A stretch of DNA of 64,000 nt. Origin: Desulfobacteraceae bacterium (GTDB lineage Bacteria; Desulfobacterota; Desulfobacteria; Desulfobacterales; UBA5852). The stretch spans positions 50,537 to 114,536 of the forward strand of contig JABZFP010000029.1 of the NCBI GenBank assembly GCA_014237395.1, given 5' to 3'. The position numbers and the translations under genes are program-made. Position 1 is the stretch's first letter. The number at the start of each line of letters is the position of its first letter. Positions 23,121 through 56,962 of the stretch are shown one piece after another. The notes beneath the pieces were generated by a model. It had not been told where the DNA came from. It did not search any database and worked only from the letters and a program-made list of their open reading frames with translations.

Positions 23121-23226
23121 GACGGCTTCGAAAATTGTTCAAGATCAAGGCGTGCAAGTTGTGAGGAGCGAGGCGTGCTCAATGCACGCCGCAGTGACGA
23201 AGAGCGCCGCGCAACGCAGATATTGG
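23121..23226. repeat. structured palindromic repeat, copy R2 (left arm + core; interrupted by IS)
   Basis: Left arm GACGGCTTCGAAAATTG (23121-23137). Core about 80% identical to R4. Central hairpin GGCGTGC-tcaat-GCACGCC (23172-23190). Core ends at gatattgg (23226). Confidence 0.75.
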
Positions 23227-23239
23227 ACTTTTTCCTATG

Positions 23240-23437
23240 TGGTCCCATGTCAAGGAGAAAGCGTTAAGCAAACAAATGCCCTTTTCCTATCCGCATCTAA
23301 AAATGCATAGTACCGATTCGGTACACAAAAAAGCGAGCCGCCATTTACGAAGCGCCCTCAAGGGGCCAAAAGTCCGCCGCGGCCATCGCCCTGAGACTGT
23401 TTGCTTGTTTCTCCTTAACGACTATTTCCAATCAGAG
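23240..23437 (-). ncRNA. candidate bridge/seek guide RNA of the IS110-family element
   Basis: Long-range pairing of 23252-23260 with 23408-23416 and of 23268-23274 with 23398-23404. Internal hairpin GTACCG-att-CGGTAC (23310-23324). Encloses cttttcctat (23281-23290), which copies the IS end tttttcctat (23229-23238), and atttacgaagc (23343-23353), which is identical to the flank at 24589-24599. Strand is not established. Confidence 0.4.
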
Positions 23438-24517
23438 TTATGCTGCCATGCCACGCACTTGATAACTTCGTTGCTGCGTGCTCAATCGCCACAAAATGAT
23501 GGCCAAATCCCTCGCCAACGCCACGATTACTTTTTGCGGCACAGCGGTTTTAGCGACGATCCGTTGATACTTCCCCCCCGCCAATTCATCTTTGCGACGC
23601 CAACACCAGGCGGCCTCAACCAGCAAACTGCGCAAACGTTTCTGTCCCACGGGCCTCAATTTTGCCCGCCCCTTGCTCTCTCCGCTTTGCCGCACCATGG
23701 GGGCAAGACCCAGATAGCTGGCCACCTGATTGGCCGACTTAAAGCGCAAGGGGTCAAACAACTCCAGCAGGAAGGTCGCCGCGGTAATCGGACCAACCCC
23801 AGGCGCTGTTTGAAGACACTCAAAAGCTTTTTCATGGTCGCCCTGACGACATACCGCTCTGAGCTGTTTTTCGATATGTTGTCTTTCTTTGAGCAAAAAA
23901 GCCAACTCACGCACCAGGCTTCTAAGCGTATCTTTGGCCGAGGTTTGCAACGGCAGCTTCCAAAGCGCTTTGACCCCCTTGTCGCTCCAGTGCGCCAGAC
24001 CGGCCGGTTCCTTTACGCCAAGATACAGCAAGTGCGAACGGATCCTCTGTTTGACCGTACGAATCGAATCAACCAGGTCGTGACGACGACGCACCAGGCT
24101 GCGTTGCGCCTCTTGGGCCCTGCTGGGAACAGCGATCCCCTTGAGGATCCCGTTGGCAGAATAACGGGCCAGTCGTATGCAATCGAGTCGATCGGTCTTG
24201 GCACCTTGCGTCACCGGTCGGGGTACACGGTTGGGGGCTACCACCAACACCTTAATATCCCCCTCTTCAAGCAGACGGGCCAACTCAAATCCGGTCGGTC
24301 CGGCTTCGTAGGCTACCTGCACGATCTGAGGGCTAAATTTTTGCAACTGCTTAACCACCAACGCGGGGTCGGCCGGACTGACAAAAGTCTGCAAAAACCC
24401 GCTAATTCCATGGAAGGCAACATGATAGCTGTTTTTATGAACATCGATACCAACGTGAAAAAGATCACTTTGGGTTTCCAAAACTTCGCTCAACCGTGCT
24501 AAATTAACTTTTGCCAT
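23438..24517 (-). CDS. IS110-family transposase (DEDD/RuvC-like N-domain + Transposase_20 C-domain)
   Basis: 359 aa with HVGIDVHKNSY near the N-terminus and LQTAPGVGPITAATFLLEL...FKSANQVASYLGLAPMVRQSGES in the C-terminal half. Confidence 0.92.
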   Translation of the reverse strand: MAKVNLARLSEVLETQSDLFHVGIDVHKNSYHVAFHGISGFLQTFVSPADPALVVKQLQKFSPQIVQVAYEAGPTGFELARLLEEGDIKVLVVAPNRVPRPVTQGAKTDRLDCIRLARYSANGILKGIAVPSRAQEAQRSLVRRRHDLVDSIRTVKQRIRSHLLYLGVKEPAGLAHWSDKGVKALWKLPLQTSAKDTLRSLVRELAFLLKERQHIEKQLRAVCRQGDHEKAFECLQTAPGVGPITAATFLLELFDPLRFKSANQVASYLGLAPMVRQSGESKGRAKLRPVGQKRLRSLLVEAAWCWRRKDELAGGKYQRIVAKTAVPQKVIVALARDLAIILWRLSTQQRSYQVRGMAA

Positions 24518-24589
24518 GTTGGTTCCTCCTTTGCTGAATAAGTTCGTGGCAACGTCCTTATTCTAACATCGTTTGGGACCAACATGGTA

Positions 24590-24603
24590 TTTACGAAGCC
24601 GTC
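24590..24603. repeat. displaced right arm of repeat R2
   Basis: The 15-nt right arm aTTTACGAAGCCGTC (24589-24603; its first nt is counted with the IS/flank junction) pairs 14/15 with the reverse complement of the first 15 nt of the left arm (23121-23135). It closely resembles the R5 right arm TTTTACGAAACCGTC. Confidence 0.7.
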
Positions 24604-37015: not shown

Positions 37016-37042
37016 GGTGTCCCCTGTTGATGGAAACGTGCC

Positions 37043-37166
37043 GACGACGTTGTGAACCGTTCAAGGTCAAGGCGTGCAAGCGCCAAGGAGTGAGGCGTAC
37101 ACCAGGTACGCCGCAGCGACGCGAAGCGCCGCACAACGCCGAGATTGGGCGGTTCACAACGTCGTC
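37043..37166. repeat. structured palindromic repeat, copy R4 (inside nqr operon)
   Basis: Perfect 17-bp arms GACGACGTTGTGAACCG (37043-37059) / CGGTTCACAACGTCGTC (37150-37166). Central hairpin GGCGTAC-accag-GTACGCC (37094-37112). Fills the nqrB-nqrC gap. Confidence 0.8.
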
Positions 37167-38349
37167 AGACATTGGACATCCTTCGCCGCATGCGCAGCTG
37201 CATCTCGATGTGATCCAGCAACGGGTTGAAAAGGTTCATGAAAAGAATCGCCAGACCCACCCCCTCGGGAAAAGCGGGGTTGAAGACCCGGATCAGAACG
37301 GTCAGCATGCCGCACATGAACCCGTATATCCATTTGACGTGCTTCATGTGAGTGGCCGAAACCGGATCGGTGGTCATATAAACAATGCCGAACGCCGATC
37401 CCCCCATGATCAGATGATAAAACGGATTGAGGGAAAGAAAAGGGGCGGAATCCGGCCCGGCGATGAGATTCAGGAGCGCACCGGTGCAGAGCACCCCTAA
37501 GACGCCCCCCAGGATAATGCGATAACTGGCAATGCCCAGCAGGATGAGGAACAGGCCGCCCAGGACACACAGGAGGGTCGACGTGCCGCCCACGCTGCCC
37601 GGATAAAGACCGCCAAAAAGCTTGAGGGCGCCGTAGCCCACCGAATGCAGGGTTTCTTCCACGGCCTGGCCGGCCGGGGTGGACGCGGAAACGGACAAGG
37701 GCGTTGCGGCCGTGAAGGTATCCACCACGGTGGTGCGCGCGCCGCTCAGGACGGTCCAGACCTGGTCACCGGAAAGACTGACCGGGTAGGCGAAATAAAG
37801 AAAGGCCCGGCCGGTCAGGGCCGGGTTCAAGAAGTTGCGCCCGGTGCCGCCAAAGACTTCCTTACCGATCACGATGCCGAAGGAAATCCCCAAGGCCACC
37901 TGCCACAGCGGGGTTCCGGGAGGCAGTGTCAATGGGAACAGCATGCAGGAAACGAAAAGCCCCTCGCTGATTTCGTGCTTGCGGACAACGGCAAACAGAA
38001 TTTCCCAGGCGAACCCCACCACGTAAGTTACGATCACCATGGGCAGCACGAGCCAGATACCGCTCCAGATCACCGGCAGCAAGTCGGTGGAGAGCCCCGA
38101 GGCAAGCCGCGACTGGAGGCCCGAATTATAGATGCCGAAACACAGGTGCGGAATCAGCGCCACGATCACCAGTGCCATGAAGCGCTTCACGTCCAGGCTG
38201 TCCCGTACGTGGGGAAGCCCCTCGGACCGCTCGACGGGCCCGAAAAAAACGGTTTCGATGGACTCGTAGAACGCATACAGCTTGTGATAGGGTCCCCCCT
38301 CCTCAAACCGGGGCCTCAGATGATGGAATAGGGTGCGGATCGCTTTCAT
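37165..38349 (-). CDS. nqrB: Na+-translocating NADH:quinone oxidoreductase subunit B
   Basis: 394-aa polytopic protein of the NqrB/RnfD family, with DTFTAATPLS at the flavinylation position. Its stop TGA (37167-37165) overlaps the right arm of repeat R4. Confidence 0.9.
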   Translation of the reverse strand: MKAIRTLFHHLRPRFEEGGPYHKLYAFYESIETVFFGPVERSEGLPHVRDSLDVKRFMALVIVALIPHLCFGIYNSGLQSRLASGLSTDLLPVIWSGIWLVLPMVIVTYVVGFAWEILFAVVRKHEISEGLFVSCMLFPLTLPPGTPLWQVALGISFGIVIGKEVFGGTGRNFLNPALTGRAFLYFAYPVSLSGDQVWTVLSGARTTVVDTFTAATPLSVSASTPAGQAVEETLHSVGYGALKLFGGLYPGSVGGTSTLLCVLGGLFLILLGIASYRIILGGVLGVLCTGALLNLIAGPDSAPFLSLNPFYHLIMGGSAFGIVYMTTDPVSATHMKHVKWIYGFMCGMLTVLIRVFNPAFPEGVGLAILFMNLFNPLLDHIEMQLRMRRRMSNV

Positions 38350-56740: not shown

Positions 56741-56802
56741 TGTGCATCCAGAAATGTCCAATTTTCCCGATATCGGCGCTACGCGTAAAAAGCCCTGTAG
56801 CA

Positions 56803-56962
56803 GACGGTTTCGTAAAAGGTTCGAGATACGGCTTGCGAATCCCGTGGAAAGAGGCGTACTTTTCGTACGCCGCAGTGACGAGGGATTCGTGTAACGCGGA
56901 TATTTATCCCTTTTAAGGGACGGTGTCCGCCTTTGGCGGATCGGGCGTTTTACGAAACCGTC
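56803..56962. repeat. structured palindromic repeat, copy R5 (extended)
   Basis: Perfect 15-bp arms GACGGTTTCGTAAAA (56803-56817) / TTTTACGAAACCGTC (56948-56962). Central hairpin GGCGTAC-ttttc-GTACGCC (56853-56871). Carries an extra ~45-nt module with two small hairpins before the right arm. Confidence 0.8.

Follow-up and report, generated by a model that had tools for sequence, protein, structure and literature searches.

Evidence that the 3′ non-coding region of an IS1111-group insertion sequence encodes a probable seekRNA/bridge RNA matched to a host palindrome

An insertion sequence of the IS110 family lies at 23229-24588 of the window (the whole 64-kb stretch of DNA that was analysed); it is 1,360 bp long and carries its transposase gene on the minus strand. 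The locus raises the question of what the long non-coding end of this element does. The original prediction, made from this DNA alone, took it for a seekRNA or bridge RNA, in which one segment repeats the host DNA flanking the element and another repeats the terminus of the element itself. Here, we compare the element with its relatives and with empty insertion sites. Guide–flank covariation, a covarying secondary structure, the empty sites and an internal donor copy that tracks the element end all support that prediction, and we put the probability that the 3′ non-coding region encodes a seekRNA/bridge RNA guiding this IS1111-group element at about 0.82.

The element and the palindrome that it divides

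The open reading frame runs from 24517 to 23438 on the minus strand, and the 210-nt non-coding DNA (23437..23228) therefore sits 3′ of the gene, with about 70 nt of non-coding DNA on the 5′ side. These positions agree with the IS1111 layout, a non-coding end 3′ of the transposase, that had been assigned to the element. The features of the element and its site are as follows.

23229..24588, minus strand: insertion sequence, 1,360 bp; stands in for one A of the empty site
23438..24517, minus strand: transposase, 359 aa; DEDD/RuvC-like domain, PF02371, GLAPMVRQSG motif
24574..24588, minus strand: left end with subterminal inverted repeat ACCATGTTGGTCCCA, inverted repeat with 23234-23247
23234..23247, minus strand: right end with subterminal inverted repeat TGGGACCACATAGG
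24589..24603, no strand assigned: left target flank, the right arm of the host palindrome; ATTTACGAAGCCGTC on the plus strand
23121..23228, no strand assigned: rest of the host REP-like repeat; right target flank GTCC (23228..23225)

The transposase contains the domains PF01548 (E = 4e-16) and PF02371 (E = 7e-25), and the model NF033542, ‘IS110 family RNA-guided transposase’, scores 242 bits against a cut-off of 140. D25, E71, D109, D112, S278 and G279 are invariant in an alignment of 36 homologues (the window protein and 35 others), as is the GLAP....SG motif; D25, E71, D109 and D112 are the catalytic residues. Residues 22-353 align with the IS5075 and IS4321 transposases (28% identity, E = 1e-16), and IS621 and ISCro4 align with the C-terminal domain alone (residues 195-343, E about 1e-8); judged by these alignments, the protein is related over its full length to IS1111-type transposases. 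A look-up of its exact sequence returned its own locus alone, and further insertions of the element were found via a 99% variant (P0001).

The element termini, ACCATGTTGG... and ...CACATAGGAAA, recur in conserved form in over 30 relatives. The left end is kept as (T)ACCATG(T/C)(T/C)GG.. in all relatives, and the right end is followed by an A-run (23233..23229) that consists of the core and the first target bases. The subterminal repeats share a perfect core, GGTCCCA/TGGGACC, within the range of approximately 7-17 bp expected of the IS1111 group. Insertion is sequence-specific and lacks a conventional target duplication, the A-run core alone being shared, again as in IS1111 elements. This is an intact IS1111-group (IS110-family) insertion sequence, with bounds of 23231-24589 if the AAA core is counted as shared.

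The element splits a host repeat between its inner part and its right arm. This repeat is a composite palindrome of about 130 nt, with copies at 23121-23228 plus 24589-24603, 37040-37170 and 56803-56960; the inner part (23137-23226) is found again at 37059-37148 and 56803-56904. The repeat is conserved at its inner ends (GTTCAAGATCAAGGC ... ACGC.GATATTGGAC), and its outer arms vary between copies yet stay complementary. The repeat family is also present in unrelated metagenomic genomes, where it is hit by 68-72% relatives of the element; the repeat has no Rfam match. The proposed programmed target is the junction of the inner part with an outer arm of this REP-like palindrome. Two near-matches to the target (56784-56795, CGTAAAAAGCCC; 56811-56822, CGTAAAAGGTTC) stand beside the third repeat copy and are potential secondary insertion sites. 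A role of the host repeat as a cis-regulatory RNA was considered and dropped, as its orientation to neighbouring genes is not fixed.

Syntenic loci of related genomes (L119-L128), in which a 4HBT thioesterase gene is followed by the repeat and then by tpx, are empty. They read GATATTGGAC-A-ATTTACGAAGCCGTC, also given as ...GATATTGGAC A ATTTACGAAGCC..., and in them the left target flank at 24589..24603, which forms an inverted repeat with 23121-23135, is uninterrupted. The 11-mer ATTTACGAAGC, the host-flank match of the original prediction, has just two exact occurrences across the 64-kb window (23343-23353 and 24589-24599); sites with at most one mismatch number three against 0.57 expected by chance, the third being the opposite palindrome arm. 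Short matches are common and the prediction had rested on one copy of the element, so chance, both for the 11-mer and for the 10-mer that repeats the terminus, or a target-site duplication at a mis-called end had to be weighed. The empty sites carry the 11-mer once and outside the element; it is therefore host DNA and not a target duplication. In addition, the homologous positions in more than 30 relatives match the flanks of their own elements. With two sites in 64 kb and a single copy in the empty sites, we dropped this explanation, the probability of which is practically nil.

A 56%-identical element with sharp ends, present in eight copies in one MAG (L003-L009, L017), defines the core. 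The intact half-palindrome GGGGAAACTTTC of this family shows that AAA belongs to the target as well as to either junction and is hence the core, and that the element contributes the T of TACCATG. From the junctions, the empty target is predicted as CGTAAAAAGTCC, but the orthologous empty sites are CGTAAATTGTCC, a 2-nt discrepancy in which AATTT stands in place of TTTTT and which amounts to two mismatches to the right-target guide described below. Either the recipient allele differed, with a better match to the guide, or the junction model is two bases off; over the neighbouring 30 nt, the window and the empty-site genomes differ at four positions. The empty orthologous sites show GGACAATTTACG against the GGACTTTTTACG implied by the occupied allele (window 23229-23233), and the two guide mismatches may be the reason that the L119-L128 alleles stay unoccupied.

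A covarying RNA structure 3′ of the transposase gene

From 34 distinct relatives, covering 40-100% transposase identity, we took the homologous stretch of 3′ non-coding DNA and aligned it. Four helices fit the alignment: the closing stem P2 and the hairpins P3, P4 and P5.

23277..23387, minus strand: conserved RNA core, helices P2-P5 and putative guides; covariance model R1, 94.4 bits, E = 2.4e-21
23252..23416, minus strand: long RNA form, approximately 165 nt, enclosed by the outer stem P1
23336..23384, minus strand: P2 stem, closes the proposed target-binding loop; 23384..23379 pairs with 23341..23336
23354..23366, minus strand: P3 hairpin between the two proposed target guides; 4/5 pairs compensatory, 94.7% of cells paired
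23310..23324, minus strand: P4 hairpin GUACCGAAUCGGUAC; GUAC of its 3′ arm invariant
23293..23306, minus strand: P5 hairpin (GCAU/AUGC), proposed donor part of the RNA; 3/4 pairs compensatory, 98.5% of cells paired
23248..23253, minus strand: TTGACA, −35 box; conserved upstream of the right end across the clade

Across the 34 relatives 92.4% of cells are paired, compared with 24-44% in slid controls, and both sides have changed in 93 cells against 29 ± 4 in shuffles (none of 500 reached 93). P2, P3 and P5 covary through compensatory changes, whereas P4 is conserved in sequence instead; in P2, three pairs have changes on both sides and the stem is extended by RNAalifold. The 3′ non-coding tail holds a conserved structured RNA, as a seekRNA or bridge RNA should. 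Model R1, built from the 34-relative alignment, has a single significant match in the window, at 23277-23387 on the minus strand. In 48 related loci scanned with it, many of them outside the seed, the match is always on the transposase strand and just 3′ of the gene, and a Tritonibacter plasmid yields a further match, in an element of 43% identity. R1 did not detect the non-coding region of IS5075; homology to the experimentally studied RNAs is therefore one of architecture and not of sequence. In Rfam 15, neither the region nor the whole window, the host repeat or the related loci had a match at gathering score or E ≤ 10, a result that is uninformative because Rfam appears to hold no such family.

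Outside the conserved core, P1 pairs 23416..23408 with 23260..23252 and 23404..23398 with 23274..23268. These long-range pairings, which the original prediction had already drawn, are present in the MFE and centroid folds as well as in an RNAalifold consensus built from six relatives, among which compensatory changes occur (e.g. AGC/GCU to UAC/GUA); the internal hairpin that it had placed at 23310-23324 is reproduced by folding and by the same consensus. In close relatives, P1 and the P2 extension, which are predicted with compensatory changes, put the donor-side nucleotides in a multiloop, and donor nucleotides in a multiloop have been reported for many IS1111 bridge RNAs (PMC11208160). The long seekRNA of ISEc11 has 154 nt (PMC11187229). 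P2 and P3 are missing from the single-sequence MFE fold; because this fold differs in the inner structure and both strands fold about equally, we rely upon the comparative structure.

The RNA strand is most plausibly the minus (transposase) strand. Wobble cells, 19 G-U against 11 A-C, mildly favour this strand in what is a weak test, and a promoter scan inside the element found no internal promoter. These points also bear on another explanation, in which the internal copies work as DNA, either as subterminal transposase-binding sites or as target-mimic DNA in synapsis, and no guide RNA exists. Both strands of the region fold well, palindromic features are strand-symmetric, the wobble asymmetry is weak and the promoter is missing, all of which would suit such a role. 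Nevertheless, pairing in P2, P3 and P5 is kept by compensatory changes as the sequence drifts, which argues for a folded single strand rather than duplex binding sites. The target segments, moreover, stand in the order and polarity of verified IS1111 seekRNAs that co-purify with the transposase (PMC11187229), and the NCBI family model NF033542 labels the protein as RNA-guided. A purely DNA-level function is highly improbable, and we proceed with a guide RNA.

A promoter would form at the junction of the excised circle. Only there does TTGACA come to lie at a spacing of 17 nt from TACCAT (24589..24584), an arrangement of sigma-70 type, and such a circle-junction promoter has been noted for IS1111 elements (PMC11187229).

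The left end has a second relationship within the element: ACCATGNNGG is complementary to CCNNCATGG over the transposase start codon, and the positions NN covary. The complementary segments are 24575-24587 and 24514-24526 (ribosome-binding site and start codon), with the covarying pairs TT/AA, TC/GA and CT/AG. Read-through transcripts would therefore mask translation initiation, and the complementarity looks like a device that blocks the translation of such transcripts. At 23300-23324 (minus strand), P4 and the UAUGCAUUUUU behind it together score like a terminator, with a U-run that is unconserved outside the subclade; termination here could yield a short RNA with the target loop alone.

Some close relatives have 230-330 nt of additional DNA inside the element. 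It lies 3′ of the RNA in L112 (1870-2170), L083, L010 and L109, and 5′ of the RNA in L099 (1684-1910). Some of the inserts, otherwise different, have a common motif, CTCCGACGAGCT..GAGCCCATTCTCGG; the extra DNA of the close relatives has no Rfam match. The true right ends of the close relatives are approximately 300 nt further out than their internal donor copy, past this passenger DNA.

Matches to target flanks and element ends

Three segments of the RNA match DNA at the ends of the element.

23343..23353, minus strand: putative left-target guide (B guide), GCUUCGUAAAU; reads the same as the left flank's top strand
23368..23375, minus strand: putative right-target guide (T guide), GGACUUUU; complements the top strand, AAAAGTCC, at the right junction
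23281..23290, minus strand: likely left-donor guide, AUAGGAAAAG; copy of the right end, CATAGGAAAAA

The T guide (23375..23368) was absent from the original prediction. In transposase orientation, the T guide, between P2 and P3, is the reverse complement of the core and right flank, and the B guide, between P3 and P2, is identical to the left flank and core; the B guide would thus be able to pair with the left flank's bottom strand. Together, the two match GCTTCGTAAA / AAGTCC at the site. In IS1111 seekRNAs, a top-strand match likewise precedes, on the 5′ side, a bottom-strand match, and both overlap in the target (PMC11187229). Guides and flanks of the window element and of selected relatives are listed below.

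Window element: T guide GGACUUUU; B guide GCUUCGUAAAU; flanks GCTTCGTAAA / AAAAGTCC
L003: T guide AAAGUUU; B guide GGGGAAAU; flanks GGGG-AAA-CTTTC
L012: T guide GGGUUCGUU; B guide CAAAGAAAU; flanks CAAAGAAA / ACGAACC
L025: T guide GUGCCCUU; flank GGGCAC
L072: T guide CACCACUU; flank GTGGTG
L083 (71% identical): T guide GAACUUUU; right flank AAAGTTC, at the other end of the same palindrome

The original prediction had named covariation between guide and flank across relatives as a check, and all of its refuting conditions that can be examined by computation turned out in its favour. Both guides track their own flanks in 31 elements, with the same outcome in 22 non-redundant elements: the mean own-flank match is 6.6 against 4.1 for the T guide and 4.9 of 7 variable positions against 2.1 for the B guide, and in neither case did any of 20,000 permutations reach the observed value, a statistic that relatedness among the elements inflates. 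L083 provides a natural retargeting event. Its guide has changed from GGAC to GAAC, a single G-to-A substitution, and its flank reads GTTC in place of GTCC, whereas its siblings retain GGAC and have GTCC flanks.

At least five other sites are occupied by an element of 99% identity whose 111-nt RNA core is the same, with flanks of NNTTCGTAAA / AA(A/T)GT(C/T)C; short metagenomic contigs are possibly chimeric across IS copies. Judged from five other insertions of the same element, the constrained part of the 11-mer is some 8-9 nt (UUCGUAAAU). In a Pseudodesulfovibrio MAG, dozens of copies of a 48%-identical relative (L030-L065) lie at sites of the type ACAAAAAA / GGCC, which resemble the T-tract side of intrinsic terminators; their guides (GAACAAAAAAU, AGCGGCCUUU) match.

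On the donor side, the internal cttttcctat (23281-23290) equals the terminus tttttcctat (23229-23238) at nine of ten positions, as the original prediction had noted. Among the 34 relatives, internal AUA(G/A)GA(A/G)A and CATA(G/A)GA(A/G)A, the true right end, correspond in 32 (13 with AGGAAA, 17 with AAGAAA and two with AAGAGA), and an identity of 9-10 nt between copy and terminus holds from 40% to 100% transposase identity. From this match, AUAGGAAAAG is likely the left-donor guide; the AGG/AAG covariation may reflect few independent events, and the segment may be partly structural, as part of it can also pair with the upstream U-rich linker.

A right-donor guide is expected to complement AAATACC. 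The invariant GGUAC just 5′ of P5 offers GGUA·TACC and, about a fixed C·A mismatch, one or two A-U pairs in addition, i.e. a conserved, discontiguous match of 4-6 bp, and IS621 shows a discontiguous pairing of its right-donor guide with the right donor (PMC11208160). We infer that the 3′ arm of P4 is a candidate for a discontiguous right-donor guide, with GGUA set against TACC of the left end. No covariation of the left-end variants (TT, CT and TC) with RNA positions was found among the relatives, since the left end is nearly invariant.

These donor matches are where a target-only seekRNA has to be considered, one in which the target loop is a true guide, AUAGGAAAAG and P4 are structural or protein-binding elements and the protein reads the ends through their inverted repeats. 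An 82-nt seekRNA, described with target matches alone, sufficed for ISEc11 (PMC11187229); here, the donor copy can pair with the U-rich linker or the P1 region, the right-donor pairing has just 4-6 bp with a mismatch and the AGG/AAG agreement was possibly inherited from few events. Against this, the internal copy follows three right-end variants, the rare AAGAGA included, its 9-10-nt identity with the terminus is conserved over the whole range of 40%-100% transposase identity, and IS1111 bridge RNAs are reported to place donor-binding nucleotides in a multiloop (PMC11208160). We therefore consider a target-only RNA rather unlikely and retain an RNA with both target and donor guides as the preferred reading.

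Proposed mechanism and comparison with known systems

In the mechanism that we propose, the 3′ non-coding region would be co-transcribed with the transposase gene (minus strand) into an RNA of approximately 110-165 nt. Its target loop, closed by P2 and divided by P3, would present two guides whose footprints overlap on the A-rich core, the presumed place of strand exchange. The donor part would lie in the multiloop, with the invariant GGUAC of P4 probably pairing discontiguously with the left end (TACC). The DEDD transposase and the RNA would then synapse the circular IS junction with the target, leading to insertion with no duplication beyond the core. The circle junction, ...CATAGGAAA-TACCATG..., would assemble the TTGACA-17-TACCAT promoter; its expected sequence is CATAGGAAATACCATG. 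In this scheme, we infer transcription and its strand, the binding of the RNA by the transposase and the exact crossover.

That the element adds a new example, and with it a new subfamily by sequence, to the IS1111 seekRNA/bridge-RNA systems already known is well supported; the mechanism itself has been known since 2024 and is no longer surprising biologically. A stronger claim, that of an undescribed bridge-RNA subfamily without an Rfam entry, found mainly in Desulfobacterota-type genomes and combining three distinctive features, is tentative and, taken jointly, doubtful. Were it true, the right-donor guide would be the invariant 3′ arm of a hairpin (GGUAC), so that opening of the hairpin would gate donor recognition and the fixed C·A mismatch would be put to use. 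The invariant AAAU end would allow the left-target guide to read the naive target and, after insertion, the left junction too, a single guide serving insertion and excision. Lastly, single-base guide changes would shift the element between the two arms of a REP-like palindrome.

The clade provides a natural data set, with at least 30 distinct target specificities at 40-100% transposase identity, empty sites that fix the boundaries and a single-base natural retargeting event. From it, guide rules for the IS1111 subfamily can be read, namely guide lengths, the A-rich core and tolerated mismatches. The orthologues are candidate programmable recombinases that differ from IS621 in their core and in the greater length of the left-target guide, and the covariance model annotates a conserved non-coding RNA that has no Rfam entry.

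The closest known systems are the IS1111 seekRNAs of ISEc11, ISKpn4, ISPst6 and ISPa11 (Siddiquee et al., 2024; PMC11187229). The window element shares with them a transposase of the DEDD type that bears the GL-P----SG motif, subterminal inverted repeats, an extended non-coding region 3′ of the gene, the T-then-B order of guides with overlap on the core, a long-form RNA of comparable size (about 150-165 nt) and a promoter in the circle junction alone. ISPa11 also has a palindromic REP-like target, and natural retargeting through guide changes, as in this clade, is known for ISEc11 and ISXne4. The differences are that the window transposase is just ~28% identical to those of IS5075 and IS4321, that its left-target match spans 11 nt whereas those of published IS1111 elements are short by their descriptions, and that the published elements were tested experimentally, whereas the window clade is known here from sequence alone.

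The IS621/IS110 bridge RNA (Durrant et al., 2024, PMC11208160; Hiraizumi et al., 2024, PMC11208158) has two guides per substrate, as would the RNA of the window element. In both, one guide pairs, or is predicted to pair, with each strand, the two overlap at a short core, a hairpin divides the guides of a loop, and the left-donor guide copies an element end; in IS621 terms, B is the left-target guide and T the right-target guide (PMC11208160). Unlike in IS621, the RNA of the window element lies 3′ and not 5′ of the gene, the guides of each loop come in the opposite order, an A-rich core (AAA) takes the place of CT, and the donor nucleotides are placed in a multiloop instead of a simple internal loop. 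Alignment with the IS621 and ISCro4 transposases is confined to the C-terminal domain. Finally, the REP-targeting elements ISPa11, ISPpu9/10 and IS621 resemble the window element in inserting site- and orientation-specifically at one position of an intergenic palindromic repeat. The window repeat differs from theirs in being larger, a composite palindrome of ~130 nt outside any Rfam family, and this repeat type is found in the Desulfobacteraceae MAG and in other metagenomic genomes.
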